From: a virus
Lineage: Duplodnaviria; Caudoviricetes
Length of the DNA stretch: 61,539 nt
Reading direction: 5' to 3' (one strand)
IMG/VR virus record: IMGVR_UViG_3300036851_000313
Location: 1-61,539 of that record
This document shows positions 19,900-61,539 of the stretch, piece after piece (position 1 is the stretch's first letter; each line of letters opens with the position of its first letter). Made by a program: the position numbers and the translations under genes. Under the pieces are notes generated by a model. The model was given only the letters and a program-made list of their open reading frames with translations. It did not search any database and was not told the origin of the DNA.

Positions 19900-20184
19900 A
19901 TGCCGTACTCGCAGGGAAACATCCGCATGTTCTGCCGCAACAGCGATGGAACCGAGGTTACGGCCACGGTCTTCTTCAAGACCCAGAACGGGAACATGGA
20001 GCAGATCGTCGTCACGAACGGATCGTCCACGCTGGTGCCGAAGGTGATCCTCCGTAAGGGCGACCTGTCGCAGTCGTTCGACATCACGCCGCTGCTCGGC
20101 CGGACGATCACGAAGGAAGAGATCAACCTGTTCGGCGTCATTCGCATCACGGAGTTCAACAGCCTTGAGATGTCCTGCGGGTGA
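19900..20184 (+). CDS. Hypothetical protein
   Basis: 94 aa ORF of somewhat lower GC. Confidence 0.55.
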   Translation: MPYSQGNIRMFCRNSDGTEVTATVFFKTQNGNMEQIVVTNGSSTLVPKVILRKGDLSQSFDITPLLGRTITKEEINLFGVIRITEFNSLEMSCG

Positions 20185-20187
20185 TCC

Positions 20188-40051: not shown

Positions 40052-40069
40052 TGCCCGCGAAGCCTGGCG

Positions 40070-40735
40070 TCACCGGCGCCGAGATCTGGTGCAGTTCTCT
40101 TGTCCTGTGACTAGCTCTAGATGGGCCGGATTGACGCAGCGCCGATGCGGGCAGGACGTACCACCGTGACAGGCCAGATCGAGACTATGGCACACATGGT
40201 CGAGTTCTAGATCATCTGGAATGGGCGCTACGAATAGTTCATAGATAACGCGGTGTGCCATCCTCTTCGCGCCACCCCAAACCACATTCGCGTAACCGTC
40301 GGGCCGAACCGATCTCCATTGCCAGCAGTCGTTACTCAGAACGGTGATCTTGTCAATCAAGCGCTCAGGCACATCGCCGATCAGCCTAAGCGTCTTGATC
40401 GGATCGCCGTGGGTCTTCCAGCGCCGGTAGTGTAGGTCGCACCAGCTGCGGGCTATATGGGGTCGCTCACAACCATCAATCGCACAGGTTCCTCGTGACC
40501 GCTCATGCGTCTTGAGTGGATCTCCATGCTTACGCCAACGTTCATAGTGCGTATCGCACCATCCGCGAGCATGAGCCAGTTGGACGCAGCCATCGATCTG
40601 GCACGGTTGGCGTTCTGGGCGTTTCGTCTTGAGCGGATCACCGGTTGCTAGCCACCGCTTGTAGTGGGTGTTGCACCATCCGCGGGCTAGATGAGGTTTC
40701 TCGCAGTCTTCGATGGCGCAGGTACGCTCATCCAC
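40070..40735 (-). CDS. HNH homing endonuclease with three N-terminal CxxxxC...CxxH repeats
   Basis: AHRVIY...LDHVC...CVNPAHL motif; lower GC; antisense to the lysis operon. Confidence 0.85.
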   Translation of the reverse strand: MDERTCAIEDCEKPHLARGWCNTHYKRWLATGDPLKTKRPERQPCQIDGCVQLAHARGWCDTHYERWRKHGDPLKTHERSRGTCAIDGCERPHIARSWCDLHYRRWKTHGDPIKTLRLIGDVPERLIDKITVLSNDCWQWRSVRPDGYANVVWGGAKRMAHRVIYELFVAPIPDDLELDHVCHSLDLACHGGTSCPHRRCVNPAHLELVTGQENCTRSRRR

Positions 40736-40836
40736 GTCGGTCTCCTCGCATGAGATCGGCCATGCCCCCGGGCCGTTACAGCGGTCGCGGGGGTCGCAAT
40801 ATCTGTGATCATTCTATCAAGTAATGAGGTGCGACT

Positions 40837-41211
40837 TTGTCTCCAAAACACCTCGTCAACCAGCCGTCTCCGGCCCCCACCCGCAAGATGACCGCCGTCG
40901 GCGGCACCGCCACCGCGGTCGCCCTGCTCGTGTGGGTCGCGCACCGCGGCCTCGGCCTGGACCTCGACCCCGAGCTCGCGGCGCTGATCGTCGGCGCGCT
41001 CGCCTCGGTGGCCGGCTACCTGGCGAAGGAACGCCGCGACCAGGACACTGCCGGGCAGAAGATGACGCTCGGCCGGCACCGCTACCCGCCACCCCCGCGC
41101 AGGCCACCCGACGACGCCGGGCTCACCACCGTCGAAATCCTGCTCATCATCATCGTGGTGATGCTGTTCGTCCTCGTCGCCGTTACCACCGGGGCACGAA
41201 TAGACGTGTGA
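40837..41211 (+). CDS. Holin-like protein with a C-terminal prepilin-like segment
   Basis: PTRKMTA...two TM helices...AGYL pattern, then DAGLTTVEILLIIIVV. Confidence 0.6.
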   Translation: MSPKHLVNQPSPAPTRKMTAVGGTATAVALLVWVAHRGLGLDLDPELAALIVGALASVAGYLAKERRDQDTAGQKMTLGRHRYPPPPRRPPDDAGLTTVEILLIIIVVMLFVLVAVTTGARIDV

Positions 41212-41359
41212 CCGATGCGCGCCCGCCACCGCGCACCCCACCGCGACCACCTGCTGTTCTGGCACCTGTTCGCCATCGCCGCCTGGGCGATCATCGGGCT
41301 GATCCTCGCCATCAGCGTCACCCGCGCCGGCTACTGACTAGAAACTAGAAACTAGACGT

Positions 41360-41398
41360 CCGCCCCGCTGTCCCTCCTCCGAGGGGACAGCGGGGCGG
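41360..41398. terminator. Hairpin terminator between convergent operons
   Basis: 15-bp stem ccgccccgctgtccc / gggacagcggggcgg. Confidence 0.75.
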
Positions 41399-41403
41399 CT
41401 TCG

Positions 41404-41676
41404 TCATGCCCGGGGACGGTTCACGGCATCGAGCGCCCGCGCCGCGACGATCGCCGGGTCGGCCATCACTCGCGCCCGCGCCTCATCCCGGACATCGGCC
41501 GGTAGGCGGTCGAAGGTGTCCTGGTAGCAGGTCCGCATCATCCGGTCCCGAATGTCCTCCGGCATCGCCACGAACACCGTCGGGTGCATCGCTCCGGCCA
41601 TGTCGCGGAGCAGGATCGCCGCCATCAGCAGCGCATACGCGGCGTCCACCAGATCGTTGCGTTCGATGTCGGTCAC
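41404..41676 (-). CDS. Hypothetical protein
   Basis: GTGA-coupled last gene of the leftward operon. Confidence 0.55.
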   Translation of the reverse strand: MTDIERNDLVDAAYALLMAAILLRDMAGAMHPTVFVAMPEDIRDRMMRTCYQDTFDRLPADVRDEARARVMADPAIVAARALDAVNRPRA

Positions 41677-41957
41677 GGCTTCCATTCCTCGCGGAAGTTT
41701 GGGTGGTCGGCGTGCCTCGCGGCGATTGACCTCAGCAGGACCCGGCCGGGCCTCACCGAGGCCGCGAGCGTCACACCGGCCCGCCCCGCCGCATACCGCG
41801 CTTTCATCGCCTGCCACGCGAGCGTCCCCGCGACCCGCCTGCGGGCCTCCTGCGCGTCCGGCGCGAACTCCGCGCCGCACAGCGCGAGGATGCGGCGCTC
41901 ATCGGCGGTCTCCTCCTCCGCGAGGCGGTCCCGCAGGAACTCCACCAGCTCGTTCAC
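41673..41957 (-). CDS. DUF6221-like protein (paralogue 1)
   Basis: LVEFLRDRLAE...HADHPNFREEWKP. Confidence 0.7.
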   Translation of the reverse strand: MNELVEFLRDRLAEEETADERRILALCGAEFAPDAQEARRRVAGTLAWQAMKARYAAGRAGVTLAASVRPGRVLLRSIAARHADHPNFREEWKP

Positions 41958-42310
41958 GGCTTCCACTCCTCGTTGTAATCGGGGTGGTCCGCGTACGGCA
42001 GGGCGAGGTTGATGACCGCAATGTGAAGACCTGAGCGAACGCACTGGGTGGACCAAGCCATGTCGTTCTTACCGGACGCGAGGAGAGAGTTGATCTCGCC
42101 GTCGAGCGCAATATAGGCGTCCACGATCCGCCGCTTCGCCTCGACCTCGCGCAGCACGTGGGCGGGGTCGTGGGCGGACACGAATGCTAGTTCGGCTGAC
42201 TCGGAGCCCCAGGGATACGACGGGTAAGAATCCACCTCGTTGATGCATGCCCTCGCCAGCCGCTCGCGCTCGCCAAGCCGCGCGGTGAGGAACTCCACCA
42301 GACCGCTCAC
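41954..42310 (-). CDS. DUF6221-like protein (paralogue 2)
   Basis: LVEFLTARL...HDPAHVLREVEAKRRIV...PYADHPDYNEEWKP. Confidence 0.75.
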   Translation of the reverse strand: MSGLVEFLTARLGERERLARACINEVDSYPSYPWGSESAELAFVSAHDPAHVLREVEAKRRIVDAYIALDGEINSLLASGKNDMAWSTQCVRSGLHIAVINLALPYADHPDYNEEWKP

Positions 42311-42713
42311 GGCACCTCCTCCGCCCACTGCTCCACCCACGTCGGCTTGTCCATGCCCCGGTCCGCCACATGCGGCCCGGCGTGGCCTAGCCGCAGATCG
42401 CAGCGGATGCCCAGCCGGTGCCGAGCCGGGCACCGGTCCCATGGCCACCGCGACCACCGCAGCCCAGACAGGTCGATCACCGGACCAGCCTCTCGCGTGC
42501 CTCGTCCGCGCGGGCGTAGTGTTCGCAGGGCCACGATACGAACCGGCGGCGGTTGGAGCAGGCCCAGCAGACAGCCTCCCGTCCGTCGCCTGCGAGGTCG
42601 ACGGGCCGGTGCGCGTCCATGACCAAACCGTTGAGCCAGACCGCGATGCTGTCCGGGTGCATCCTGCGCAGCATCTCGCGCAGAAGTTCCCAGAACAGGT
42701 TCAACCGGGTCAC
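42307..42713 (-). CDS. Two small hypothetical proteins (42307-42480, 42477-42713)
   Basis: GTGA-coupled ORFs. Confidence 0.55.
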
Positions 42714-43213
42714 CGGACCACCCTCCCACGCCCGTTATGCGCGACGTTGTGGATCGGCCGCTCCGCCCGGATCGCCGCCTCCTCGGCCGCATCCGCCGAC
42801 TCGCGGTCCGGGAACCACTCCGTGCGCCGCTGCACATCACCCTCCATGAACGCCCGCAGGTCCGCGTTGTGCTGCGCCTCCCGCCGCAACACGTCGTACG
42901 AGGTCCCGATATAGCCGGGCGGCCCGATCGGGGGGCAGGTGCAGGCCGGGTACCAGCGGTACAGCGCCCGCCGCCTGCTGCGGGATCTCAGCACCACCCG
43001 GCGGCGCTGACGCAGCCTCGCCGCCCGCCGCCGTGCGTGGACCCGCCGCAGCAGCCGCCACCACCGGCGCACACCCCGCCGCCCCGACCCGCTCGACACC
43101 AGCAGCGCCGCGGCTACCGCCCACGTAACCGGCTCCGTGAGCAGCGGGGCCAGCAGCGGCCACGCGGCGTCCAGCATCTCGACTAGCAGCGCCTCAAGCT
43201 CCCCGTCGGTCAC
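42710..43213 (-). CDS. GIY-YIG-like nuclease with a hydrophobic N-terminus
   Basis: ALYRWY...GYIGTS...RREAQH...AEEAAIRAERPIHN motif. Confidence 0.65.
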   Translation of the reverse strand: MTDGELEALLVEMLDAAWPLLAPLLTEPVTWAVAAALLVSSGSGRRGVRRWWRLLRRVHARRRAARLRQRRRVVLRSRSRRRALYRWYPACTCPPIGPPGYIGTSYDVLRREAQHNADLRAFMEGDVQRRTEWFPDRESADAAEEAAIRAERPIHNVAHNGRGRVVR

Positions 43214-44763
43214 GACGCCGCCCACCGGCCATGCCCCGTCTGCGCGGCCACCCCGTCGTCCCGCCACGACGCCAGGCGCCGCTCCACCGTCGCCCGCGAC
43301 AACCCCAACTCCTCGCCCGCGGCCACCAGGTCGGCGGTCTGCGCCCCGTCCTGGCCGGCTGAACGGAGCCGCTCCAGCAGCCGGTCATCCGCAGACGGCG
43401 ACGGCTCCACGACTGGGCCAGCGGTCGGCACGTCCGCGCCGCCGGGCCGGGCGTGCTCCGCGGCCGTCTCCCGGCGCTGCGCCTCCGACACCCAGAACGC
43501 CCGCGCCAGCCTCGGCCGCGACGACAACGCCGTCCGCGCGTGCAACAGCCCAGGCTTCGACGCGTCGAACCGCGACGTGTCCCACCCGTCATCCAGGGCA
43601 CCGTCGCCGAACACCACCACCGAGTGCGCCCGCTCCCGCACCCGCAGCCCGATCGTGTTCGCGAACTGCCCCCGCACCTGCGGATCCACCACCACCACCG
43701 TCGGATACTGCGTCGCCGCGTACACGAACACCCACGCCTCCCGGCCCATCAGAGCCAGCTGCGCCAACGCCTTCTTCGCCCGCCCCGAATCCTTCAACCG
43801 GGCCAGCTCGTCGATCACCACGATGACTGCCCGCTGCTCCGCGGTCGGCTTCCAGTCACCGGAGTCCATCGCCCGGTACCGGGCATCCATGTCCGCCACG
43901 GCCTTCTCCAGCATCACCACCGTGGACGACACCGAGTCGGCGAACTCGGCCGCCGCCGGCCGCCAGTCCCGCATCTGCGGGCTGCCCTTCAAATCGGCGA
44001 CCCGCACCTCCGCATCGGCGCAGTACAGCAGCGAGGCGATCAGCACATGCTCCACCCCAGTCTTGCCCGCATCAGTGGTACCGGCGATCATCGTGTGCCG
44101 GTGCAGCGGCACCAGCAGATCCCCGCCGTCCGCGTACACGCCCAGCGGCGCCGGATCCCGGACCGACCGAGCCTGCGGACCGGGCCACGACCTGATCCTC
44201 GCCAGCGGGTCCCGCAGCATCCGCCGCACGATCAGGAAACCGCCGGTACCGGTCCGCTGCACCGACACCGACCCGTCCCGGGCCCGCCACGTGTTCGTCA
44301 GCCGGTCCGCCAACTCGTCCAGGTTCCGCCCGGTCTTCCCCGGATACAGGGTGACCTTGACCGCCCACCCGTTGCGGTCCGCGCCGACCACCTTCGCGGT
44401 CGACCGCTCCAGCTCGGGGACGTACCGGGCGGTGCCGGTGTCCCAGTTCTGCGCCACCTCGCGGGCGCGCTGCCACGACTTGGCGGCCTCCTGCCGCGGC
44501 ACCACCGTGGCCTCGTACCAGCCGGTGACCGCCCGCCACCGGGCCGCACCCGGTACCGCCGGTACCGTCCACTGCCCGGACCAGCGGTCCCGGGCGCCGC
44601 GAACCACGGCCACGGCGGCACGACGGTGCCACCGCCACACCGCCCACCCGCCGCCGGTCCGCTCGCCCCGGTTCAGGAACACCACTACCGCGGCCAGGAC
44701 GACGCCGTACCAGCCGACCGCGATGAGCAGCCCGTACCACAGGCCCGCCGCGAAATCGGCCAA
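43210..44763 (-). CDS. traB: FtsK/SpoIIIE-family DNA translocase (TraB-like)
   Basis: N-terminal TM helix; Walker A AGTTDAGKT; Walker B VVIDE; ATQYP; C-terminal wHTH GLSRATVERRL...GHGRW. Confidence 0.8.
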   Translation of the reverse strand: MADFAAGLWYGLLIAVGWYGVVLAAVVVFLNRGERTGGGWAVWRWHRRAAVAVVRGARDRWSGQWTVPAVPGAARWRAVTGWYEATVVPRQEAAKSWQRAREVAQNWDTGTARYVPELERSTAKVVGADRNGWAVKVTLYPGKTGRNLDELADRLTNTWRARDGSVSVQRTGTGGFLIVRRMLRDPLARIRSWPGPQARSVRDPAPLGVYADGGDLLVPLHRHTMIAGTTDAGKTGVEHVLIASLLYCADAEVRVADLKGSPQMRDWRPAAAEFADSVSSTVVMLEKAVADMDARYRAMDSGDWKPTAEQRAVIVVIDELARLKDSGRAKKALAQLALMGREAWVFVYAATQYPTVVVVDPQVRGQFANTIGLRVRERAHSVVVFGDGALDDGWDTSRFDASKPGLLHARTALSSRPRLARAFWVSEAQRRETAAEHARPGGADVPTAGPVVEPSPSADDRLLERLRSAGQDGAQTADLVAAGEELGLSRATVERRLASWRDDGVAAQTGHGRWAAS

Positions 44764-44779
44764 CGCTCATTCCCCCCCG

Positions 44780-45070
44780 TCAGGAGCCGGGCTGCCAGCC
44801 CGCCGGGGCGTGCCCGGCCGGCACCCCCCACGCCTCCCACTGCTCGGACACCTCGGTGAAGCTGATCCCGCAGCCGCCGCAACCACTGTCCAGGGACGCG
44901 GTCATGTGCATGCACACCGGGTCACCGCTGCCGTTCATGCGCCCACTCCTTTGCTCGGCCACGAACGTGTCGACGTCTTTCTTGTTGCCGCTCTCATCAA
45001 CACCGCCGCGGTAGCCCTCGACTTCGCGAAGCTGCCGCAGTCGTTCGAAGCGCGGATCGCCATCGAACAT
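44780..45070 (-). CDS. Hypothetical protein
   Basis: TGATG-coupled in the transfer-like operon. Confidence 0.55.
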   Translation of the reverse strand: MFDGDPRFERLRQLREVEGYRGGVDESGNKKDVDTFVAEQRSGRMNGSGDPVCMHMTASLDSGCGGCGISFTEVSEQWEAWGVPAGHAPAGWQPGS

Positions 45071-45273
45071 CAGCGGATGCCGAACGAGGCCAGGAACGCC
45101 GCCGACATCGTGTCAGCCGACGCCACCACACCCTGCCCCAACGGGATCTGCGCCAGCAGCAAGCCCCACCCGCCGAGCAGGATCAACTCCCACGTCTTCG
45201 TCTTCTTCAGCTTCCAGGACACGAAGATCCCGGCGGACAGCGCCACCAGGACCACGGTCAGCGCGACAGACAT
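45070..45273 (-). CDS. Small membrane protein (spread/transfer-accessory-like)
   Basis: GAAGGGG SD; two hydrophobic helices. Confidence 0.6.
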   Translation of the reverse strand: MSVALTVVLVALSAGIFVSWKLKKTKTWELILLGGWGLLLAQIPLGQGVVASADTMSAAFLASFGIR

Positions 45274-45346
45274 GCGATCACCCCTTCAGTGACTCGCCGT
45301 GGCGGTGAAACCATCAAGATCGTGCGGCTCGCGCGCGCGCGTATGG

Positions 45347-45568
45347 CTACCTGTCTGAGGGATTGAGGGAACTGAGGGAACTCACGCACCGTTGACCCCT
45401 CTCGGCCTGCCGCCGCATCCACCTGAGCCGCATGTCGAGCAGGATGTCCCGCGAGCGCGGGCGCGACGGCTCCGTCAGCGTCAGGTAGTAGTCGATGATC
45501 CGCAGGGCGGTCTCGGGGTCGGTGCGTGGAGTGACCCCGATGGCGATCTCGGCCGTGTTCCTGGTCAT
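45347..45568 (-). CDS. Hypothetical protein
   Basis: GGAGGGAG SD; ATGA overlap. Confidence 0.55.
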   Translation of the reverse strand: MTRNTAEIAIGVTPRTDPETALRIIDYYLTLTEPSRPRSRDILLDMRLRWMRRQAERGQRCVSSLSSLNPSDR

Positions 45569-46392
45569 GGCGTGCTCCCTCCGTGTCCGTTACTTCCAGT
45601 CGCCTCGAGCTGGCGGCGTAGCTGCTGCGCGGTGGTCTTGCTGATCTGCAACTCCCGCGCCCACGTGGCGAGCGACTCGCCCTCGAGCCCGCGGGCCCGG
45701 ATCTCGGCGAGCCGTTCGGTGTCGCTGCGGGCTCGCCCGTTCGGCGCAACCCGCTTGGCCGGCCGCGTTCGTTTGGCAGGCTGGGGGCGGGTGCCGGCGG
45801 CGACCGGCGCCAACGCGGCGGACCCAACCCCCCCGGGGCCGCCCACCCCGCCGCCGGCACCCGCAGACGCCGAGTTCGTCGCGAGTTTGTGTTTAGGCTC
45901 CACTGATTTGTATTTAGGCTCCACAAACCCGGCGCGGCGGATCATGGACAGTAGCGTCTCCACCGACCACACGAACGCCACCGCCGGCCACGCCGCCACC
46001 ACCCTGGCCAGCACGTTCGGTTCGGCAGCCGCCACGTTCGCGCCCAGCGTGGCCACCGCCCCCAGCCCGAGCAGGCACCACGCCAACCGCGACGCCGGAC
46101 GGCCCGCCCGGGAGTCAGCCAGCAACCCCATCGACCCGGCCAGCACCGCACCGTCGACCGACAGGGGCAGCAGTACCGCCGACAGCGCCGACTCGCCGAC
46201 CCGTACCGCCACCTCGTGCGCGTGCTGGTACGACACCACCGCGGCGACCGCGGCCACCGTCAGGACACCGGCGACGGCGAGGCGGTGGGCGGTCCGGTCG
46301 GTATCGGCGTACCGGCCAGGGTCGGCCGGGGCGGGCGGCGGAACCGCATCGGTGAATCCGCCCGTACTCGCCGGCCGGCCCTGGGGTTCCAT
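45565..46392 (-). CDS. DUF2637 / SpdA-like membrane protein with a C-terminal HTH
   Basis: AAVVSYQH...LPLSVDG...ATLGANVA...VVAAWP motif; GAGGAGG SD. Confidence 0.8.
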   Translation of the reverse strand: MEPQGRPASTGGFTDAVPPPAPADPGRYADTDRTAHRLAVAGVLTVAAVAAVVSYQHAHEVAVRVGESALSAVLLPLSVDGAVLAGSMGLLADSRAGRPASRLAWCLLGLGAVATLGANVAAAEPNVLARVVAAWPAVAFVWSVETLLSMIRRAGFVEPKYKSVEPKHKLATNSASAGAGGGVGGPGGVGSAALAPVAAGTRPQPAKRTRPAKRVAPNGRARSDTERLAEIRARGLEGESLATWARELQISKTTAQQLRRQLEATGSNGHGGSTP

Positions 46393-46479
46393 CCGCCGCA
46401 CCTCCTCGTGTGCGATCCTGCGCGGTACTTCACCATACGCCGATACCGCAGTACCGCAACCACGGGTACCGTCATACGG
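46393..46479. promoter_or_regulatory. Divergent promoter/operator region between the DUF2637 and GntR genes
   Basis: Inverted repeat GCGGTACT (46422-46429) / AGTACCGC (46450-46457); -10-like TACCGT 7 nt before the GTG. Confidence 0.5.
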
Positions 46480-47238
46480 GTGAAGGACGACCCGCCCCGC
46501 GGCCACGGATACCGGCAGATCGCCGCCGACCTGCGCGCCGACATCATCGGCGGCAAATACCGGCCCGGCGACGAAATCCCCTCCTACCGGGAACTCGTCA
46601 AGACCTACGGCGTCGCCGACCTAACCGCCCGCCGCGCCACCGACGTCCTGAAAACCGAGGGCCTCGTCCACGCCGACCGGCAACGCCTCGTCGTCCGCGA
46701 CACTCACCCCCCCGTCACCATTTGGATGACCCATACCGACTCCGCCGGCCGCCGCCACGGCGCCTCCACCGACGCGTTCGTCACCGACCTGCGCGACCAG
46801 GGCCGCGAACCCTCCCAGACCATCGACGTGGCCATCGTCGCCGCCGACCACCTGATCGCCGACCGGCTCGAGCTCGACCCCGGAACCACCGTCGCCGCCC
46901 GCCGCCGCGTCCGGCACGCCGACGGGCAGCCCCTGGACGTCAACGACTCCTACTACCCGTACGAGCTGGTGCAGGGCACCGAGGTGCTCACCCCCGGCGA
47001 CGTGGGTCGCGGCATCGGCAACGTACTCCGCGAACTCGGCCACGAGCAGGTCCGCTTCGTCGACGAGATCACCACCCGCACCGCCGCCGACGACGAGCGC
47101 CGCCGCCTCGACGTGCCCGCCGGCACCCCCGTCATCGAACACGTCCGCACCGGGTATACCGCGGCCCGGCCCATCCGGGTCACGATCACGGTCGTGCCCG
47201 GGGACCGGGTGCGGCTGCTGTACGAGGTCGATGCGTGA
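46480..47238 (+). CDS. GntR/HutC-family regulator with a UTRA domain (KorSA/TraR-like)
   Basis: YRQIAADLRADI...YRPGDEIPS wHTH and UTRA C-terminus. Confidence 0.88.
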   Translation: MKDDPPRGHGYRQIAADLRADIIGGKYRPGDEIPSYRELVKTYGVADLTARRATDVLKTEGLVHADRQRLVVRDTHPPVTIWMTHTDSAGRRHGASTDAFVTDLRDQGREPSQTIDVAIVAADHLIADRLELDPGTTVAARRRVRHADGQPLDVNDSYYPYELVQGTEVLTPGDVGRGIGNVLRELGHEQVRFVDEITTRTAADDERRRLDVPAGTPVIEHVRTGYTAARPIRVTITVVPGDRVRLLYEVDA

Positions 47239-47537
47239 TGATGATGGATCACCCCTACTGGCAGGTGCCGCACGAGCCATGCCCCACGTGTGGCCGCACC
47301 TACGGCATCCCCGTAGACGTCCCGGGCAGGTGCGGGGTGTGCCTGACGGGGCTGAGCCTCGACGGCCGCCCGGTCCACCCCGTCCAGCGCGGCGGGCGCT
47401 GGGTGTCGCCGATCACCGGGGCGGAGTGCGCTCAGCTGCCCGATGGGACATGGACGATCCTGATCGCCTGGCCGGGTTGGTCGCGCGAGGATCAGGTCGC
47501 CGATTGCGCCGCTGCTCGGGCGCGAGGTGTGTGGTGA
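47235..47537 (+). CDS. Hypothetical Cys-rich protein
   Basis: GTGA-coupled; two CxxC motifs. Confidence 0.5.
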   Translation: MMMMDHPYWQVPHEPCPTCGRTYGIPVDVPGRCGVCLTGLSLDGRPVHPVQRGGRWVSPITGAECAQLPDGTWTILIAWPGWSREDQVADCAAARARGVW

Positions 47538-48061
47538 TCATCCGCCGGGCCGCAGCAGACGACCTGCCTGCCGTCACCGCACTGATCGGCGAAGCCGCCG
47601 CCTGGCTGGCCGGCCGCGGCGTCGACCAGTGGCGCACCCCACCCGGCCCGGACCGCATCGAGGTCAGCATCAAGGCCGGCGACGTGTGGATCCTCCGCCA
47701 CGCCGACACCCCCGCCGCCACCGTCACCCTGGACGACTACGGCGACCCCGAATTCTGGGAACCCCACGCCGCCGGCGACGCCCTCTTCATGCACCGCCTG
47801 GCCGTCGCCCGCACCCACACCGGCCGCGGCATCGGCGCCGCCCTCGTCGAATGGTGCGCCGAACAAGCGTGGCAGCGCGGCAAATGGTGGCTGCGCTGGG
47901 ACGCCTGGAAAACCAACCCCGGCCTACTCGCCTACTACCGCCGGCTCGGCGCCGAACACGTCCGCACCGTCGACCTCGCCCACCGCTCCTCCGGTGCGCT
48001 CTTCCAAGTCCCCGCCAGGCCGATGAGCGTCACCGCCCGCGCACTCATCCGCGAGGCGTGA
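47534..48061 (+). CDS. GNAT-family N-acetyltransferase
   Basis: HRLAVAR...GRGIGAAL...LRWDAW..NPGLLAYYRRLG. Confidence 0.88.
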   Translation: MIIRRAAADDLPAVTALIGEAAAWLAGRGVDQWRTPPGPDRIEVSIKAGDVWILRHADTPAATVTLDDYGDPEFWEPHAAGDALFMHRLAVARTHTGRGIGAALVEWCAEQAWQRGKWWLRWDAWKTNPGLLAYYRRLGAEHVRTVDLAHRSSGALFQVPARPMSVTARALIREA

Positions 48062-48581
48062 GCTGGCTCGGATGACGGCTTCTGATGATCTCCTCCAGCG
48101 CGACCCGATAGATCGACTTCAGCTCGCGGCGGCTTTCCGGCTGGATATGGTCGGTGGCCGCTTGCCACCATCCCGGTCTGCGCTCGCCGGTCTCCACCCA
48201 GGCCAAGGCGGCGGCCCGCTCCCCTGCCCGGAACTCCGGCATGTCGTGATGGCACGGGAAATGGCAGAGCGGCAGCACGTTGGACAGGTCGTTGTTGCGG
48301 GTATCGCAGAAGTCCTCGAGATGCGCCGCGTCGAGGAAGCGCTGGGCGAGCCGCCACGTCTTGCGTCGCCGCCGCTCCGCGTTCCAGTCGGGATGCTCCT
48401 CGCGGAGGGCTCCCACGTCGTCTATGGGCGGGAGCCATCCGCATCGGAAGCACGACGGCTCGCCGAGCCCGATGAACCGAAAGTAGGCGTCGGGCAGCTC
48501 GTCGGACGTGCGCCAGCGCACGGCGACGTCGTAGAGGCGAAACGTCTTCCGCGCTCCGGCGGGTGAGCCAGACATCTGCAT
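48045..48581 (-). CDS. HNH-like nuclease / hypothetical protein
   Basis: CFRCG...DAAHL...NDLSNVLPLCHFPCH. Confidence 0.6.
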   Translation of the reverse strand: MQMSGSPAGARKTFRLYDVAVRWRTSDELPDAYFRFIGLGEPSCFRCGWLPPIDDVGALREEHPDWNAERRRRKTWRLAQRFLDAAHLEDFCDTRNNDLSNVLPLCHFPCHHDMPEFRAGERAAALAWVETGERRPGWWQAATDHIQPESRRELKSIYRVALEEIIRSRHPSQLTPRG

Positions 48582-48658
48582 GATCCCCTTCGGGCGAACT
48601 GTTGGCGTCCGCGTAACGTCGCGTGCGCGAAGTTTCGGCAGAGCCTACACTACCCGCC

Positions 48659-50017
48659 GTGACGACGACCCAGAACGCAGCCATCTACGTGCGGATCAGC
48701 GACGACCGAGCGGGTGCCGGGCTCGGCGTCGCCCGGCAGGAGAAAGACTGCCGCGAGCTAGCGAAACGCCTCCGCTGGCACGTCACCGACGTCTACATCG
48801 ATAACGACGTCTCCGCCTACACCGGCAAACCCCGCCCCGAGTACGACCGGCTCCTCGAGGAGATCCGCGACGGCACCGTCACCCGCGTATTGGTCTGGCA
48901 CACCGATCGGCTGCACCGCAACAACCGCGAGCTCGAGGACGTCATCGACGCCGCCGAGCTGCACGGCACCGTCATCCACGGCTACAAGGCCGGCCCGCTG
49001 GACCTGTCCAACGCCTCCGGTCGGATGACCGCCCGGATCCACTGCGCCGTCGCCCGGGGCGAATCCGAACACAAGGCCGAACGGCAGAAGCGCAAGCACC
49101 TAGAGATCGCGCAGAAGGGCCGTCCCAACGGCGGGCTGCGGCCCTTCGGGTGGGACGAGGACAGGATCACCCTCCGCCCGACCGAGCACGCCATCATCCG
49201 CGAGGCCGCCCGCCGACTCCTCGCCGGCGAGTCGCTGCGAAGCGTCGCCGCAGACCTGAACGCCCGGGGCGTGGCGACCGTGACCGGCAAGCCGTGGTCC
49301 CCAACCGTGCTCCGCGCCATGCTCGCCCGCCCCCGCATCGCCGGGCTCCGCGAACACAACGGCCAGATCGTCGGCAAGGCGACGTGGCAGCCCGCGCTGC
49401 CCAAGACGACCTGGCAGGAACTCCGCGACTTCTTCGCCGACCCGGAACGCCATGTCGGCGCCAACACCCGCCGGTGGCTGCTCACCGGCATCGCCCAATG
49501 CCCCGCCGGGCACCGGCTCACCACCCGAATGGGCAACCGCAACCGGCCCGAGACGTCCCGCACCTCCTACGCCTGCCCGACCTGCCGCATCTACCGGGCA
49601 ACCGAACCGCTGGACGCGTACGTCACAGAGGCCGTGCTGCATCTCCTGCGACGGCTCACCATCGAGCCGACGCCGACCATCGATGACCGCCTGGCCGCGG
49701 AGATCGAGAGCGTGCAGACCCGGCTCGAGGAAGCGGACGACCTGTTCGCCAGCCTCACCATCAACAAGGAGCAGTACACCCGCATCAGCCGCAAACTGCG
49801 CGGCCGACTAGCGGAACTCGATCGGCGCGCCCTTCCGCCGCGACGACGCCGCCTCGTCAAGGGGCTCGCCAAGCCGGACAACCGGGCCGCGTGGGACGCG
49901 CTACCGCTGGACCGGAGACGCCGGGTCGTGGCCGAGCTGATGGACGTGATCGTGCACCCGGCCGGGGTCGGGCGACGGTCGTTCCGCCCAGAGACGGTGG
50001 AACTGCGCCCGCGCTAG
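48659..50017 (+). CDS. int: Large serine recombinase (integrase)
   Basis: AAIYVRISDDR catalytic Ser motif, DRLHR, recombinase domain, Zn-ribbon, coiled coil. Confidence 0.93.
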   Translation: MTTTQNAAIYVRISDDRAGAGLGVARQEKDCRELAKRLRWHVTDVYIDNDVSAYTGKPRPEYDRLLEEIRDGTVTRVLVWHTDRLHRNNRELEDVIDAAELHGTVIHGYKAGPLDLSNASGRMTARIHCAVARGESEHKAERQKRKHLEIAQKGRPNGGLRPFGWDEDRITLRPTEHAIIREAARRLLAGESLRSVAADLNARGVATVTGKPWSPTVLRAMLARPRIAGLREHNGQIVGKATWQPALPKTTWQELRDFFADPERHVGANTRRWLLTGIAQCPAGHRLTTRMGNRNRPETSRTSYACPTCRIYRATEPLDAYVTEAVLHLLRRLTIEPTPTIDDRLAAEIESVQTRLEEADDLFASLTINKEQYTRISRKLRGRLAELDRRALPPRRRRLVKGLAKPDNRAAWDALPLDRRRRVVAELMDVIVHPAGVGRRSFRPETVELRPR

Positions 50018-50302: not shown

Positions 50303-50755
50303 CTATCCACCGTTGTTTGCCGGGCGGAGCCGACGCAGGATCGCCCGCAGCTCCCCGTGCAAATCGTTGATGGCGTCCAGCCTGTCGAACGCGTCATCCC
50401 ACGTGATCTCTTCGCCGAGCACGTCCGCGAGCGAGCGGCGCAACGCCTCCGGGTCAGTGATCTCCTCGTCGCCCACATGAACCACGTCGCCGCCACCGAT
50501 GTCCACCTCAGCTGGCACCGGCGACACCTGCCCGCCCTTGCGTAGCCGGTTCAGATCGCCGCTCGACCAGCGCAGCGCCGCCTCGATCGCCGCGCGTTTC
50601 CGCGCCTGCGGCCATCGTTTCCCGGATTCCAGGTTGCGGATCGTGCCAACGTCGACGCTGGCACTGTCGGCCAGCTCCTGCTGAGTCATGTCGAGCGCAC
50701 CGCGCCGATCGGCTACGAGGACGCCGACTTCCACGAGATCACGACCGTCCGCCAC
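50303..50755 (-). CDS. Immunity repressor (XRE HTH)
   Basis: MTQQELADSASVDVGTIRNLESG; divergent from the cro-like gene. Start is uncertain (50755 or 50767). Confidence 0.8.
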   Translation of the reverse strand: MADGRDLVEVGVLVADRRGALDMTQQELADSASVDVGTIRNLESGKRWPQARKRAAIEAALRWSSGDLNRLRKGGQVSPVPAEVDIGGGDVVHVGDEEITDPEALRRSLADVLGEEITWDDAFDRLDAINDLHGELRAILRRLRPANNGG

Positions 50756-50864
50756 GGCCCTCAGCATGACAGAAAAACCGGGAACTTCCACGGCTCTACC
50801 CGGTTGTGCGGCGAGCCGCGTTATGGTCCCTGACCTGCGACTTAATGATTCTTAACGTTTCTTC

Positions 50865-50893
50865 TTGACGACTTCGCTACTCTTCCCTACTGT
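50865..50893 (+). promoter_or_regulatory. Sigma70-type early promoter
   Basis: TTGACG-17 bp-TACTGT, 7 nt before the ATG at 50901. Confidence 0.65.
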
Positions 50894-50900
50894 TCACTAC

Positions 50901-51134
50901 ATGGCAGTAGCACGGCTCAACGGAGCCCGAGTCAGAGCGGTCCGGGAAGTGTTCAACATCACCCGAGCTGACCTCGCAAAAGCCGTCGACGTCACGGACG
51001 GCTACATCGGCCACATCGAGACCGGGCTCAAGCAGCCGTCCCCGGCTGTCGCCCGCCGCATCGTCGACCACCTCCTCATCGCCGTCGATGAGGGCCTCAT
51101 CACGTACGCCGCCACCGATGAGGCCGTGGCATGA
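50901..51134 (+). CDS. Cro-like XRE HTH protein
   Basis: ITRADLAKAVDVTDGYIGHIETGLKQPSP. Confidence 0.82.
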   Translation: MAVARLNGARVRAVREVFNITRADLAKAVDVTDGYIGHIETGLKQPSPAVARRIVDHLLIAVDEGLITYAATDEAVA

Positions 51135-54166: not shown

Positions 54167-55282
54167 ATGGCTGTCATCGACCTGCAACGCCGGATGCGCC
54201 AGCTCGGCGAGATCCGCATCGGGCACGTGGTGCCCACCTCCAACGGCAAGACCCGGCCGGAGAAGCTCGACCGGTTCCGGTTCACCAGCCCGTCCCAGGC
54301 CATCCTCGGCGACGTCGCGAAGGCGTACGGCGGCCAGGTGAAGGAGTGGGATCCGGCCAACGGCGGACCCCGCGAGTGGGAGGTGTACACAGACAGCCAC
54401 CGGCTGCCGGTCATCATCCCGCCGCTCGCCGTGACGCAATGGTACGAGCAGTACGCCGGGTCGAAATGCGTCAGGCGGTGCGACGGGCGCATCGAGCAGA
54501 AGTCCGACAAGCCGTGCCTGTGCGACCCGGAGCGCCGGAAGTGTTCGCTCACCACGCGGCTGAACGTGATGCTCCGCGACGTCCCGCCGATCGGCCACTG
54601 GCTGCTCACCTCCCGCGGCTACTACGCGGCGGTCGAGCTGCCGCCGGTCGCCGAGCTGCTCGCCAAGGGCGGCGGGCACGTCCCCGGCTGGCTGTCCGTC
54701 GAGGAGCGCCGCATCGTGCGGGAGAAGCCGGACGGCGGCACCGAGACCGTGCGGTTCATGGTGCCCACTTTGGACATCGATCTGGCACCGGCGCAGATCC
54801 TGTCCGGCGGTGTCGAGGCGGCGGCGCTGGGCGGCGGGGACCGGAAGGCACTTGAGCCGGGCGCCGGTCCGCGTGACTGGCAGGCGGAGATCGGGGGCGC
54901 GTCGTCGCGGGATGACCTGCTGCGGATCCGGCAGGAGGCCGCGAAGGCGGGCGTGCCGAACGGGGAGGAGTTCGATTCCTGGCTCGTCACTCGGATGGCC
55001 GAGATCAAGCAGCAGTCCGATCCGCCGCCGGCCGGGAATCTCGGCGCGCAGGCGGACCCGGAGGCGGACCGGATCGGCGTGTGGCAGCAGATCCTGGCCG
55101 CCGCCCCGCCCGGCTGGGGGCCGGCCGACTTGGAACGCGACTTCGCCGAACGCAACGGCGGCCTCGTGCCCGCCACCGCCGAACCCGCAGAACTGCAGGG
55201 CTACCTCGAGCAGCTCCGCGAGGGCGCGATCGCCGCCGAGACAGTCGAGGGCGAACTCGTTGACGAGAAGGTGCCGTTTTGA
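54167..55282 (+). CDS. Recombination directionality factor (gp3-like) family protein
   Basis: DLQRRMRQLGEIRIG...PEKLDRFRFTS...RRCDG...C..TTRLNVML. Confidence 0.7.
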   Translation: MAVIDLQRRMRQLGEIRIGHVVPTSNGKTRPEKLDRFRFTSPSQAILGDVAKAYGGQVKEWDPANGGPREWEVYTDSHRLPVIIPPLAVTQWYEQYAGSKCVRRCDGRIEQKSDKPCLCDPERRKCSLTTRLNVMLRDVPPIGHWLLTSRGYYAAVELPPVAELLAKGGGHVPGWLSVEERRIVREKPDGGTETVRFMVPTLDIDLAPAQILSGGVEAAALGGGDRKALEPGAGPRDWQAEIGGASSRDDLLRIRQEAAKAGVPNGEEFDSWLVTRMAEIKQQSDPPPAGNLGAQADPEADRIGVWQQILAAAPPGWGPADLERDFAERNGGLVPATAEPAELQGYLEQLREGAIAAETVEGELVDEKVPF

Positions 55283-60658: not shown

Positions 60659-61530
60659 CCGAGAAGCCCACCTCCTACGTGCCCCGCTCGATGGGCGCAG
60701 AGTACGGCCACCACCTGGAAGGACCCGCCACGGCCGACCGGCTGCGCGACGACATCGCCACGGCGTTGTTCTATGAGCACGACGGCAAGCAGGTGTTCCG
60801 GTGGGCCGATGCGCGGGTGGAGATGGGCCAGGACTTTTACATCAGCGATGTCATCGACGCCGTCTACGCCGCCGTCCGGCCCCACATCGACAAACTGACT
60901 CAATCCCACACGCCGGATTTGGTCGACTGGCAGCTACGCATCACCAGGGCGCTGTGCCGAGACTGTGACTCCAGGGGCTTTCGGCTCAACGACGGGCTCC
61001 ATGGCGGCGGCCTGTGCGACCACGGCAGATGGTGGACCGAAGCAGGACGCATACTCGACGGCATCCGGCCCGAACTCGCACGATTGACGGCCGCCATCGA
61101 CGCGCTACGCGCCCGCGCCGAACAGGCCGAGGACCGGCTCGACGGGCAGGCGTGGGAAGACCTCACCGCCGAATGGGACGCGCTCCGCGGGCAGCTGGCC
61201 GACTCGGAAGACGCACTGGAGCGCGCCAAGACCGAGGCCCGCATAGCTATCGCCCAGCGGGACCGGTGGCGCGACGCGGCACGCGAGGCCGACCAGCACA
61301 TCCAGGCCGCGCGGGAGCTGTGCGACGAGGCTGTCGCCGAGCGCGGCGAGTACGAGCGGCTCGTACCGGGGGAATCGCCGCAGCCTGCACTCGTCAAGGC
61401 TGCGGACATCCACCGCGCCCTCGTCCAGCCCGAGAGGGCCGACGAGCCTGCTGCGCCCGTTGATCTGAGTAAGCCGCCGCCTGGTCCACCACAACCACCG
61501 TGGCCGCCCGAATGGAGGCCGAACGCATGA
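60655..61530 (+). CDS. Hypothetical coiled-coil protein
   Basis: ATGA-coupled ORF of 291 aa. Confidence 0.6.
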   Translation: MTEKPTSYVPRSMGAEYGHHLEGPATADRLRDDIATALFYEHDGKQVFRWADARVEMGQDFYISDVIDAVYAAVRPHIDKLTQSHTPDLVDWQLRITRALCRDCDSRGFRLNDGLHGGGLCDHGRWWTEAGRILDGIRPELARLTAAIDALRARAEQAEDRLDGQAWEDLTAEWDALRGQLADSEDALERAKTEARIAIAQRDRWRDAAREADQHIQAARELCDEAVAERGEYERLVPGESPQPALVKAADIHRALVQPERADEPAAPVDLSKPPPGPPQPPWPPEWRPNA

Positions 61531-61539
61531 GGGACCGGG
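61413..61539. repeat. Terminal direct repeat (circularisation overlap), copy 2
   Basis: Identical to 1-127. Confidence 0.97.

Follow-up and report, generated by a model that had tools for sequence, protein, structure and literature searches.

A TraB-type ATPase cassette in the genome of a temperate actinomycete phage and its possible role in DNA transfer

Organization of the cassette

The window analysed here is the whole 61,539-nt IMG/VR virus record IMGVR_UViG_3300036851_000313 (Caudoviricetes). At 42710-48061 it contains a cassette in which a leftward operon is divergent from genes for a GntR-UTRA regulator and a GNAT acetyltransferase, with a serine integrase gene adjoining. The operon encodes a DUF2637 membrane protein, three small ORFs, a 517-aa FtsK-like ATPase, and a weakly matching GIY-YIG nuclease; all the genes listed in the original prediction were found in place.

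The DUF2637 gene (45565..46392, minus strand; 275 aa) matched PF10935 at 58.6 bits (cut-off 22.8), and its start is likely the ATG at 46392, which is preceded by GAGGAGG. The protein has a conserved C-terminal helix-turn-helix (HTH) and an NG..G..TP tail. It had been described as SpdA-like, a designation that was not upheld: pIJ101 SpdA, SpdB, and KilB and the Spd ORFs of pSG5 give no DUF2637 match, and Spd does not occur in the source names of the DUF2637 homologues (best 120 of 379 listed). The window protein had no tblastn match among 50,697 phage records.

With regard to the small ORFs, those of 73 aa (45347..45568, minus strand) and 96 aa (44780..45070, minus strand; Cys-rich) are GC3 gene calls, neither of which matched any family in Pfam, PHROGs, NCBIfam, or PADLOC. 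The 67-aa membrane protein encoded between them (45070..45273, minus strand) had been predicted to span the membrane twice; its first hydrophobic stretch is strong and the second only moderate. It shares 39% identity with an ORF located between the DUF2637 and ATPase genes of G001, the closest relative of this phage. The GIY-YIG-like ORF (42710..43267, minus strand) scored 16.7 bits, below the Pfam cut-off of 22.6, and the nuclease call is backed by a PHROGs endonuclease match (phrog_16880, 2.5e-8); its G001 orthologue is 44% identical and scored 30.2 bits. The nuclease core follows an N-terminal part that is hydrophobic and Arg-rich, and the true start is probably internal. As predicted, the operon runs on into DUF6221 genes: at 41673..42713 (minus strand) the leftward gene string continues with DUF6221 paralogues (two ORFs, 89.5 and 36.7 bits) and small ORFs, which are absent from G001.

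The TraB-like ATPase

The ATPase gene (43210..44763, minus strand) matched PF01580 (32.2 bits, cut-off 24) and phrog_1358 (2.3e-25). Its product is comprised of an N-terminal hydrophobic helix (one membrane helix), a motor domain with Walker A (GTTDAGKTG, residues 228-236) and Walker B (VVIDE, 315-319) motifs, and a C-terminal winged HTH (wHTH). In the AF2 model (mean pLDDT 88), the three helices and beta-hairpin of the C-terminus reach a pLDDT of about 95, and a Foldseek search with this model returned an FtsK-like motor, with FtsK and TcpA as top matches.

In a maximum-likelihood (ML) tree of 57 rows, drawn without EccC, SpoIIIE, or TcpA outgroups, three chromosomal FtsK proteins separate with 100% SH-aLRT, and the window ATPase falls in a clade with pSG5 TraB, pMR2 TraB (basal), pIJ101 Tra, and two small-plasmid TraBs. 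BLASTP alignments with plasmid TraBs (62-94 bits) also include the pre-motor and C-terminal parts, whereas those with FtsK (58-60 bits) are confined to the motor core. These comparisons place the protein within the TraB radiation of plasmids and AICEs, apart from chromosomal FtsK; its domain order is that of TraB, in agreement with the type originally assigned. The assumed Streptomyces host, on the other hand, was not borne out, as the chromosomal proteins most closely related to the ATPase come from Dactylosporangium, Actinoplanes, Cryptosporangium, and Pseudonocardia; the closest of them adjoin integrases or a divergent GntR gene, which are AICE-like positions.

Regulator, divergent region and enriched motifs

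The GntR-UTRA (HutC-type) regulator gene (46480..47238, plus strand; GntR 52.5 bits, UTRA 82.6 bits) was inferred to start at GTG 46480. The protein shares 25-28% identity with pSG5 TraR and pIJ101 KorA, 36% with pZL12 gp080, and 34% with its pMLP1 counterpart. Its stop codon is overlapped, in the same direction, by the GNAT gene (47231..48061, plus strand; 41.4 bits), whose start is uncertain. The 87-nt divergent control region (46393..46479) contains the inverted repeat noticed earlier, with 8-nt arms GCGGTACT (46422-46429) and AGTACCGC (46450-46457), and a GGTACCG site at 46465.

The 8-bp palindrome CGGTACCG occurs four times in the genome, always within the ATPase gene (43874..44567; starts at 43874, 44244, 44551, and 44560) and in three reading frames. 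In an unbiased k-mer scan, 10 of the 15 genomic copies of CGGTACC were in the cassette, which makes up 6% of the genome (corrected P 1e-5); in G001 the corresponding count is 28 of 33 (6e-25). The phage G028 concentrates GTGGCCA instead (20/30 copies in its cassette, 3e-7). As a new finding, CGGTACCG is concentrated in the cassettes of both related phages, and G028 has a palindrome of its own. The copies of CGGTACCG are candidate cis-acting recognition sites, and GntR or the HTH of the DUF2637 protein could just as well be what reads this motif. The two ATPases end in different C-terminal domains, a wHTH in the window and a Cys-rich one in G001. G001 has six copies of GCGTCGCA within 140 bp at the stop codon of its ATPase gene, a position at which the 8-bp clt repeats are also found in plasmids. 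A tight cluster of this sort, made of direct 8-bp repeats, is lacking where the ATPase gene of the window ends (3′ end); the motif enriched there is a palindrome dispersed over approximately 700 bp of the gene.

The carrier phage and its relatives

The carrier is a temperate siphovirus, and its host a soil-dwelling actinomycete of high G+C. Its genome is that of a complete tailed phage, with genes from terminase to tape measure, a CI/Cro-like pair, and a gp3-like recombination directionality factor (RDF, 54167-55282); the IMG/VR class is direct terminal repeats (127 bp in the window), with a CheckV completeness of 100. Intact head, tail, and lysis genes had been claimed; those for head and tail were recognised by PHROGs, while the sole lysis domain found, Amidase_2, scored 23.2 bits against a cut-off of 26. 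The large serine integrase (48623..50017, plus strand) is supported by Pfam (serine recombinase, 91.8 and 47.7 bits) and PHROGs, and no tyrosine integrase was found in the window, as had been stated before. The phage has a switch of its own at 50303..51134, distinct from the cassette GntR: a divergent pair of HTH genes, one CI-like (50303-50791, minus strand) and the other Cro-like (50865-51134, plus strand).

G001 is a separate IMG/VR record whose TerL and portal proteins are 93% and 73% identical to those of the window. Its syntenic site holds the genes for GntR, DUF2637, the ATPase, and GIY-YIG as well as the small membrane ORF; searches of G001 for the integrase families PF00589 and PF00239 gave no match. 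In G028, a complete phage whose TerL and portal families differ from those of the window, a GntR-UTRA gene is divergent from an operon with DUF2637-like and FtsK-like ORFs, with a serine integrase adjoining. In short, the related phage keeps the cassette at the syntenic position, and a phage that is not related has it as well; the DUF2637 and GntR matches of G028 (as of pMLP1) are in part below the family cut-offs. In addition, the G167 prophage, which has a related structural module, carries a TraB-family gene among its early genes, 8 kb upstream of TerL; no GntR was seen there by BLAST.

The G+C content of the cassette is 0.72 (genome 0.70), and the longest exact direct repeat across its borders is 16 nt, where shuffled sequences gave 13 on average and 17 at most. 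Given the syntenic place in G001, border repeats at chance level, and genome-like G+C, the cassette is integral rather than nested, as the original prediction of a domesticated module had it. Read coverage agreed: depth in Logan contigs, which may derive from the source sample, is even (9-11 across 36-54 kb), and one contig, not independent of the source, spans 44262-48769 and so bridges the ATPase and integrase genes. It is very probable that this is an integral TraB-type cassette in a phage.

Comparison with plasmid, AICE and phage systems

The predicted plasmid/AICE-type module under GntR control was recovered in its kil-kor layout: the GntR gene is also divergent from the transfer operon in pIJ101, pSG5, and pZL12. 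As in pIJ101 (korA/tra/spdA/spdB), pSG5 and pSVH1 (traR/spd/traB), and pMR2, there is a single FtsK-like TraB, with the same membrane anchor, motor, and C-terminal DNA-recognition domain, and the divergent repressor and translationally coupled small membrane proteins of plasmid/AICE tra modules are also shared. In pMR2, p7 (S. albidoflavus), and a plasmid of Streptomyces sp. NBC_00138, traB is followed within its operon by a DUF2637 gene. However, the window has DUF2637 first and the ATPase later, the reverse of the plasmid modules; it adds a GIY-YIG nuclease, which was not annotated in six plasmid contexts inspected; and its cassette showed no similarity to named SpdA, SpdB, or KilB. Its dispersed palindrome differs from the tight direct-repeat array of plasmids, whose TraB systems are reported to use 8-bp recognition repeats, and its carrier is a 61-kb tailed phage rather than a 7-20 kb replicon.

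The idea of a conjugating phage has precedent and is less new than claimed. pZL12 ("Streptomyces phage ZL12", NC_013420, 90,435 bp; Zhong et al. 2010, J Bacteriol 192:3747) has been described as a conjugative plasmid-phage, and its transfer is reported to require the major tra gene and adjacent genes. Like the window, it is a Caudoviricetes record with a divergent GntR gene, next to which the leftward operon has a TraB-family ATPase gene as its last member (gp071, which matched the family profile at 1.8e-29). On the other hand, pZL12 is described as a plasmid with ParA/ParB, whereas a serine integrase, an RDF, and a CI/Cro pair are encoded in the window; the operon contents are unlike, no DUF2637 match was found in pZL12, and the ATPases show marginal BLAST likeness (27% over 90 aa, E 0.004). 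It was also reported by Thoma et al. (2015, PMC4447253) that the temperate actinophages phiC31 and VWB have SpdB2 homologues, which were already proposed to spread phage DNA. That precedent, as described there, concerns SpdB2 alone, while the window has an ATPase, a regulator, and a different membrane-protein family; phiC31 gave no DUF2637 match.

TraB-family genes are also found in Streptomyces phages such as the approximately 130-kb Karimacvirus group and the Woodruffvirus Xkcd426. The FtsK-like translocases of these and of Gilgamesh belong to the same TraB-like radiation (Gilgamesh 30% identical to the window ATPase; Xkcd426 gp78 sister to pIJ101 Tra), and no GntR or DUF2637 neighbour was annotated in the three contexts inspected.

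Possible function

The region may be a cassette for dsDNA translocation that is of plasmid/AICE origin and is repressed by GntR in the kil-kor manner, resident as an accessory module and serving transfer of phage DNA; the probability of this whole statement is put at about 0.5. Briefly, GntR would bind GTAC-containing repeats in the divergent region and keep the operon off. Upon derepression, a membrane-anchored hexameric ATPase, with DUF2637 and the small membrane proteins, would recognise CGGTACCG sites on circular phage DNA, excised or replicating, and pump it in double-stranded form across septal cross-walls or contacts between hyphae; the genome could then spread in the mycelium or to a neighbour independently of virions. 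Built into the genome of this actinomycete phage is a regulated DNA-pumping gene set of the type with which actinomycete plasmids pass between cells. It hints at a second way of spreading that needs no virions, but is no proof of one. Such virion-independent transfer is a putative function proposed tentatively, its odds falling slightly short of even. Counted against transfer were the missing integrase families of G001, the GIY-YIG partner conserved in both phages, the lack of a tight direct-repeat array in the window, and the differing ATPase C-termini. Prophage conjugation also seems unlikely in the Karimacvirus group and Xkcd426, which suggests a phage-specific use.

One such use, considered unlikely here, is that the ATPase serves the intracellular cycle in a mycelial, sporulating host by resolving or segregating phage DNA as it replicates, by taking the genome into spore compartments as a carrier state, or by interfering with FtsK-dependent host development, with no cell-to-cell transfer. 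Isolated Streptomyces phages commonly carry FtsK-like genes (86 phage records matched), and in published accounts these are treated as host-like genes for replication or development; the early-gene position without a detected GntR in the G167 prophage and the lack of an integrase match in G001 are also in its favour. It leaves unexplained, however, the kil-kor style control, the DUF2637 partner common to conjugative plasmids, and the leftward transcription of these genes outside the early and late operons, and the ATPase clade is that of conjugative TraBs, far from chromosomal FtsK.

An equally improbable reading is a prophage-expressed exclusion or defence module, in which the pump, a membrane GIY-YIG nuclease, and DUF2637 intercept or expel incoming phage or plasmid DNA and GntR controls a toxic operon. 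The interval from lysis genes to the integrase/CI region is the usual place of prophage-expressed accessory genes; the cassette lies in it, regulated apart from the CI/Cro pair, and GIY-YIG is conserved beside the ATPase in both phages while unannotated in the plasmid tra operons inspected. The ATPase also has weak PADLOC matches, to mad8 (37 bits) and SspH, but these reflect a generic FtsK-type ATPase, and none of the nine other proteins scanned matched any system component. Moreover, the ATPase is nested among conjugative TraBs, the motif borne by the cassette itself fits recognition of own DNA better than attack on foreign DNA, and G001 bears the cassette with no integrase match.

That an independent AICE sits nested in the phage contig, or was joined to it by mis-assembly, is highly improbable: the contig is a metagenome assembly and the closest chromosomal ATPase relatives are in AICE-like elements, but the same cassette occupies the same site in another IMG/VR record, border repeats, G+C, and the source-dependent depth and bridging contigs are unexceptional, and the sole integrase is paired with the phage gp3-like RDF.

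Genome of the window phage

The genome that carries the cassette is a single contig of 61,539 bases with a G+C content of about 70% and an exact terminal direct repeat of 127 bp (positions 1-127 and 61413-61539), giving a unique genome length of 61,412 bp. It is classified in IMG/VR as a virus with direct terminal repeats, and its CheckV completeness is 100. Genes were called via third-position G+C (GC3), and the ORFs were then scanned with PHROGs and Pfam. The PHROGs matches comprise the large terminase (TerL, 9427-10911), the portal (10930-12558), a head morphogenesis protein, a protease, the major capsid protein (MCP), a tail-spike-like protein, and a tape measure protein (TMP) of 1138 aa, while an amidase was matched weakly (23.2 bits, cut-off 26). 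The lysogeny and early genes include a large serine integrase (48623-50017), a divergent helix-turn-helix (HTH) pair resembling CI and Cro (50303-51134), a phiC31 gp3-like recombination directionality factor (RDF, 54167-55282), an exonuclease, and an early PrimPol-DUF3987 protein (1354-4362). No tyrosine integrase was found in the window, and its sole Rfam match is a single-copy tRNA-Met. Given this full tailed-phage and lysogeny/early gene set and the terminal repeat, the window is a complete temperate siphovirus-type genome from a soil metagenome, not a prophage region with host flanks. No near-identical DNA is present in phage records.

A promoter and terminator scan of 39.8-51.2 kb gave no promoter-like and one terminator-like site, which is not above shuffled sequences. 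Two minus-strand ORFs near the cassette were also observed. The stretch at 40052-40836 is low in G+C (58% vs. 70%), lacks a GC3 coding signal, and contains three tandem copies of about 95 nt, which on the minus strand read by eye as a repeated Cys/His-rich motif; it corresponds to the ORF at 40070-40735 (221 aa) and looks like a recently acquired gene. Between the GNAT and integrase genes lies a 178-aa ORF (48045-48581) with CxxC and H-rich motifs; it has no match in Pfam, PHROGs, NCBIfam, or PADLOC, and G001, the closest relative phage, lacks it.

Cassette genes and control region

Every element of the gene list proposed for the cassette (42710-48061) in the original prediction is present according to Pfam, PHROGs, and further scans. 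The leftward operon starts with a DUF2637 protein of 275 aa (58.6 bits), whose likely start is the ATG at 46392 after a GAGGAGG site. It is followed by a 73-aa ORF, a 67-aa hydrophobic protein, a 96-aa ORF, an FtsK/SpoIIIE ATPase of 517 aa (PF01580, 32.2 bits; phrog_1358, 2.3e-25), and a GIY-YIG-like ORF, and the gene string is continued leftward by DUF6221 paralogues. The GIY-YIG-like ORF scores below the Pfam cut-off (16.7 vs. 22.6 bits) and matches a PHROG endonuclease family at 2.5e-8; its G001 orthologue is above the Pfam cut-off (30.2 bits). The three small ORFs (73, 67, and 96 aa) have no match in Pfam, PHROGs, NCBIfam, or PADLOC. A complex prediction for the ATPase and the DUF2637 protein scored 0.00 (mark 0.32), which bears on neither side.

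On the opposite strand, the genes for a GntR-UTRA regulator and a GNAT protein start 87 nt from the DUF2637 gene, and this divergent spacer contains an 8-nt inverted repeat, GCGGTACT/AGTACCGC, with arms 20 nt apart. The regulator is 25-28% identical to pSG5 TraR and pIJ101 KorA, a level not above expectation inside the HutC subfamily. It had been likened to KorSA, which is described as a GntR repressor in passages of te Poele et al. 2008 (PMC2440964).

The ATPase as a TraB-family protein

The motor motifs of the ATPase are intact, with Walker A (GTTDAGKTG) at residues 228-236 and Walker B (VVIDE) at 315-319, and K234, D318, and E319 are invariant across 26 aligned relatives. These relatives share a common plan of N-terminal hydrophobic segments, a conserved pre-motor domain, the motor, and a C-terminal motif of the type G.SR.TVYRRL...G....GRW. 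By AlphaFold modelling (mean pLDDT 88), the protein has a membrane helix and an alpha/beta motor resembling that of FtsK, and at the C-terminus it ends in a winged HTH (wHTH) of three helices (458-468, 476-485, and 490-502) and a beta-hairpin (506-510 and 513-516) with a pLDDT of about 95. Membrane association would be provided by one strongly hydrophobic helix at residues ~2-32, while the relatives have longer N-termini and more hydrophobic segments. The closest structural matches are FtsK motor domains (Foldseek top match, E 3e-19) and the conjugation coupling protein TcpA. With the fold present and the motif conserved among relatives, the wHTH is predicted to read a clt sequence as in TraB. 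Positions 500-552 of the family profile (A1), an alignment of the ATPase relatives that here covers the wHTH, also match PDB 2lvs_A, a 105-aa 'putative uncharacterized protein' (E 1.2e-6).

A HMMER search against 1.84 billion representatives detected 2180 relatives at E ≤0.001 and 30 at E ≤1e-30; only one is close (72% identical), and the next ones are 33-41% identical. A maximum-likelihood tree of 57 rows was built from the proteins of the window and G001, five plasmid/AICE TraBs (pSG5, pIJ101, pMR2, p7 of S. albidoflavus, and the Streptomyces sp. NBC_00138 plasmid), a 131-kb Streptomyces 'plasmid' protein, proteins of the phages Gilgamesh, Xkcd426, and Enygma, three chromosomal FtsK proteins as outgroup, and 43 of the 128 representatives of at least 430 aa (the first 14 by E-value, then every fourth; shorter ones and P0003 were excluded). 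In this tree, which comes from a quick search, has several long branches, and is without EccC, SpoIIIE, and TcpA rows, chromosomal FtsK splits off at 100% SH-aLRT and all remaining rows form one clade. The TraBs of pSG5 and pMR2 branch at its base and pIJ101 Tra lies further in, and these bracket the window protein, which pairs with its 72% relative in a starred group of six rows. The proposed TraB assignment thus withstood comparison with chromosomal FtsK, as the ATPase did not group outside TraB in the 57 rows. BLASTP matches to plasmid TraBs (62-94 bits) reach the pre-motor and C-terminal parts, whereas those to FtsK (58-60 bits) cover the motor core only.

Relation to plasmids and AICEs

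The divergent arrangement of the window is the same as that in pIJ101, in which korA (GntR) is divergent from tra-spdA-spdB, and in pSG5, in which a GntR gene is divergent from a spd-traB string. In pMR2, p7 of S. albidoflavus, and the 18-kb NBC_00138 plasmid, traB is followed by one to three small ORFs and then a DUF2637 gene. The small and membrane proteins of the window operon, encoded together with the TraB-like ATPase gene, are Spd-like by position. On the other hand, the DUF2637 protein had been called SpdA-like, and this label was not supported: the pIJ101 and pSG5 Spd-type proteins show no significant BLASTP similarity to window proteins, DUF2637 has no match in pIJ101 SpdA, SpdB, and KilB or in four pSG5 ORFs, and no source name contains 'Spd' among the best 120 of 379 DUF2637 homologues. 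DUF2637 is also without a match in phiC31. A role of DUF2637 as a TraB companion is thus supported, in contrast to the SpdA-like label.

The closest chromosomal relatives of the ATPase are 31-35% identical over residues 132-517 and occur in Dactylosporangium, Actinoplanes, Cryptosporangium, and Pseudonocardia, not in Streptomyces. Among the six such loci inspected, one has a serine recombinase directly after the gene, one a tyrosine integrase followed by host genes, and one a divergent GntR-UTRA gene before it. These settings are AICE-like, and the suggested plasmid/AICE ancestry of the module is reasonable.

AICEs are about 9-24 kb in size. Published examples of 10.9-17.3 kb fit this range. 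An AICE is compact and virion-free, whereas the window is a 61.4-kb genome with TerL, portal, MCP, and TMP. Passages of te Poele et al. 2008 (PMC2440964) state that AICEs commonly have an integrase, a GntR/XRE regulator, and a TraB-type transfer gene. This set is also found in the window, where the integrase is shared with the phage and an RDF is added.

The best plasmid matches to the ATPase are in five Streptomyces 'plasmids' of 129.6-132.6 kb (PLSDB, e.g., NZ_CP108441.1). A protein of one such ~130-kb element groups with that of the 129-kb phage Gilgamesh at 100% support in the tree, and these 'plasmids' may be Gilgamesh-like phage-plasmids.

Occurrence in other phages

An IMG/VR portal search returned six related contigs. 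The closest, G001, measures 61,446 bp and has ends that overlap by 152 bp; DNA identity to the window is 75-89% in the structural genes, and TerL is 93% identical. At the syntenic site it encodes GntR-UTRA, DUF2637, a small membrane ORF (39% identical), a 520-aa FtsK-like ATPase (34% identical), and GIY-YIG, and the cassette proteins have diverged far more than the virion genes. G001 has no DUF6221 genes, GNAT, 178-aa ORF, or CI/Cro homologues, and the integrase families PF00589 and PF00239 have no match in it; it may be lytic or an extrachromosomal prophage. Since the cassette is syntenic there and an integrase match is missing, it goes along with this phage lineage whether or not the integrase does. 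None of the remaining four portal relatives, two of them at least 90% complete, has an ATPase match.

Single-protein locus scans with the ATPase returned nothing from contigs of either viruses or genomes. When seven aligned sequences were used for a degenerate scan, 30 IMG/VR contigs with distant FtsK-like genes were detected; among these and G001, DUF2637 was matched in four of 31 (two above the cut-off) and UTRA in two of 31. One of them, G028, is a tailed phage of 56,707 bp with direct terminal repeats and a completeness of 100, whose terminase and portal belong to families different from those of the window; the window TerL and TMP have no match in it. In its cassette region (40674-48527), a GntR-UTRA gene of the same PHROG as that of the window is divergent from an operon whose ORFs include an FtsK-like one and a DUF2637-like one below the threshold, and the operon end adjoins a serine integrase that is 42.5% identical to that of the window. 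A tblastn search with the DUF2637 protein gave a single weak match in plasmids and none in phages.

The window GntR also matches the Streptomyces plasmid-phage pZL12 ('Streptomyces phage ZL12') and Micromonospora phage pMLP1. In pZL12, as in the window, virion genes are combined with a TraB-type transfer operon divergent from a GntR gene: nine leftward genes, the last of which, gp071, has a match of 1.8e-29 to the TraB family profile. The two differ in maintenance. pZL12 is of the plasmid type (ParA/ParB, no integration), whereas the window has a serine integrase and RDF, and no ParA/ParB appeared among its ORFs scanned. The window phage is an integrating-phage counterpart of pZL12, with a new cis-motif observation that can be tested. 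pMLP1 was rejected as a further case; its GntR is related and it has a DUF2637-like ORF below the threshold, but no TraB was found there (PF01580 and family profile A1).

In 401 sampled Actinomycetes genomes, four encode a TerL 55-59% identical to that of the window, and no close prophage was found. One of these four, the 3.5-Mb actinomycete genome G167, contains a prophage with a related structural module (TerL 58%, portal 45%) and, 8 kb upstream of TerL among its early genes, a TraB-family gene encoding 667 aa (G167:C1:2278365-2280368). In addition, many isolated Streptomyces phages have TraB-family genes annotated 'FtsK-like DNA translocase', with 86 Streptomyces phage records matched; one so named, gp78 of Xkcd426 (Woodruffvirus), is sister to pIJ101 Tra at 100% SH-aLRT. 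The tree shows the 'FtsK-like' genes of many Streptomyces phages as members of the conjugative TraB radiation, not of host FtsK, a kinship that is not stated in the passages seen of phage papers on these genes.

A full-text search, mainly of open-access main texts, found neither a full GntR-DUF2637-TraB cassette described for an integrating tailed phage nor a cassette-specific palindrome. The DUF2637 literature in such a search, judged by title and abstract, contains nothing about phages.

A concentrated DNA motif

K-mers were counted in the cassette versus the rest of each genome, without a word chosen beforehand. In the window, where the cassette makes up 6% of the genome, it holds 17 of 42 copies of CGGTAC (corrected P 3e-7) and 10 of 15 copies of CGGTACC (1e-5). 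In G001, CGGTACC is concentrated more strongly (28/33, corrected P 6e-25), as is CCGGTACC (15/16), and copies occur in the control region and, in all frames, in the genes for GntR, DUF2637, and the ATPase. All four genomic copies of the palindrome CGGTACCG in the window are in the ATPase gene, within 700 bp and in three reading frames. G028 has a different palindrome, GTGGCCAC, with eight of ten genomic copies in the cassette, where GTGGCCA is also enriched (20 of 30 copies; corrected P 3e-7). Twelve same-size control regions of the window gave a corrected P above 0.01 in 11 cases; the twelfth (6e-5) is in a region with several k-mer clusters. The motif is kept while the cassette proteins of G001 and the window are only 31-45% identical, and is thus under selection at the DNA level.

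In plasmids, according to passages of Thoma et al. (PMC4447253), direct repeats of 8 bp in the clt region are what the cognate TraB recognises. These repeats form a cluster near traB, whereas CGGTACCG is a palindrome. A scan for clt-type 8-mer clusters (at least four copies in 300 bp) detected 10 in the window, compared with 0-3 in ten Markov shuffles; the GCGGACCG cluster in the ATPase gene is not distinctive among them because several sit in repetitive structural genes. At the ATPase stop codon of G001, GCGTCGCA occurs six times in 140 bp, and the same scan of small plasmids located 8-mer clusters either within the DUF2637 gene or directly downstream of traB. By analogy, the G001 and plasmid clusters would fit the published clt description. 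In pMR2, a cluster of the words GACCCGGA/CGGACCCG lies inside the DUF2637 gene (7035-7098), and 8-mer clusters likewise lie in this gene in p7 and in the NBC_00138 plasmid; all of them may be clt sites. In G001, the GCGTCGCA copies (20712-20851) overlap the odd N-terminus (MRRIMRRF...) of the called GIY-YIG ORF, which therefore probably starts later.

Candidate readers of CGGTACCG are the ATPase C-terminus, the DUF2637 C-terminal HTH, and GntR. The first differs between the phages: the window ATPase ends in a wHTH, the G001 ATPase in a Cys-rich tail. The second is the best-conserved piece of the cassette between the two (45% identity over 69 aa), and the GntR control region also has a GTAC core. 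In the G001 ATPase, encoded at 19181-20743, the tail that takes the place of the wHTH is zinc-finger-like.

Proposed function and alternatives

The best-supported reading is that a GntR-repressed TraB/DUF2637 pump of the kil-kor type would move the phage's own circular DNA as duplex. It is favoured by where the ATPase falls in the tree and how it is built, by an operon and a regulator that resemble those of plasmids, by the conservation of the cassette among phages, by the self-borne motif, and by the pZL12 precedent. Four observations stand against it: some Streptomyces phages for which conjugation of a prophage seems improbable have TraB-family genes as well, an integrase match is missing in G001, the GIY-YIG partner is without a counterpart in the plasmid operons inspected, and the window is without a tight direct-repeat array. 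In its widest form, integrating tailed phages of mycelial actinomycetes would form a continuum with AICEs, keeping a regulated TraB/DUF2637 pump and a cassette-specific 8-bp palindromic address (CGGTACCG in the window, GTGGCCAC in G028). The genome could thus travel as naked duplex through cross-walls or between hyphae, a second infection route without receptor or virion. This is a tentative proposal, to which we assign a probability of roughly one in three.

With regard to the alternatives, the ATPase might have an intracellular role of the kind that phage authors propose for FtsK-like genes in passages of their papers (replication, segregation, or sporulation); the tree places the window protein with TraB and apart from chromosomal FtsK. 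The cassette could also be a prophage exclusion or defence device that combines the pump with a membrane nuclease, but the PADLOC scan of the cassette gave generic ATPase matches only.

Should the duplex-DNA pump function the way it does in plasmids, a temperate phage would be able to spread in two ways, by virions and by conjugation-like pumping of duplex DNA, and the boundary between phages and AICEs would be blurred. This would bear on prophage colonisation of the multicellular mycelium, on host range (transfer being receptor-free), and on gene flow in antibiotic-producing actinomycetes, and the concentrated 8-bp palindromes offer a directly testable handle.

Residence of the cassette in the phage genome

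A nested or chimeric AICE is very unlikely and was rejected on account of the synteny in G001, border repeats at chance level, the G+C, and the even read depth. Exact repeats across the cassette borders reach at most 16 nt, inside the shuffle range, and the G+C of the cassette is similar to that of the genome; together with the G001 synteny, this bears out the proposal of a domesticated module rather than a nested element. No Nudix or Rep domain was found among the cassette ORFs scanned, and the sole replication protein seen in the window is the early PrimPol-DUF3987. In Logan contigs of a soil-metagenome run, which may be the source sample and is thus not independent of the window, 36-54 kb is covered without differences at an even depth of 9-11, and the module borders show no sign of the chimeric join that the original prediction had named as a possible objection. 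Short joints in these contigs (about 21 letters on the shorter side) were set aside as noise from other soil-metagenome organisms. One Logan contig spans 44262-48769, from the ATPase gene to the integrase.
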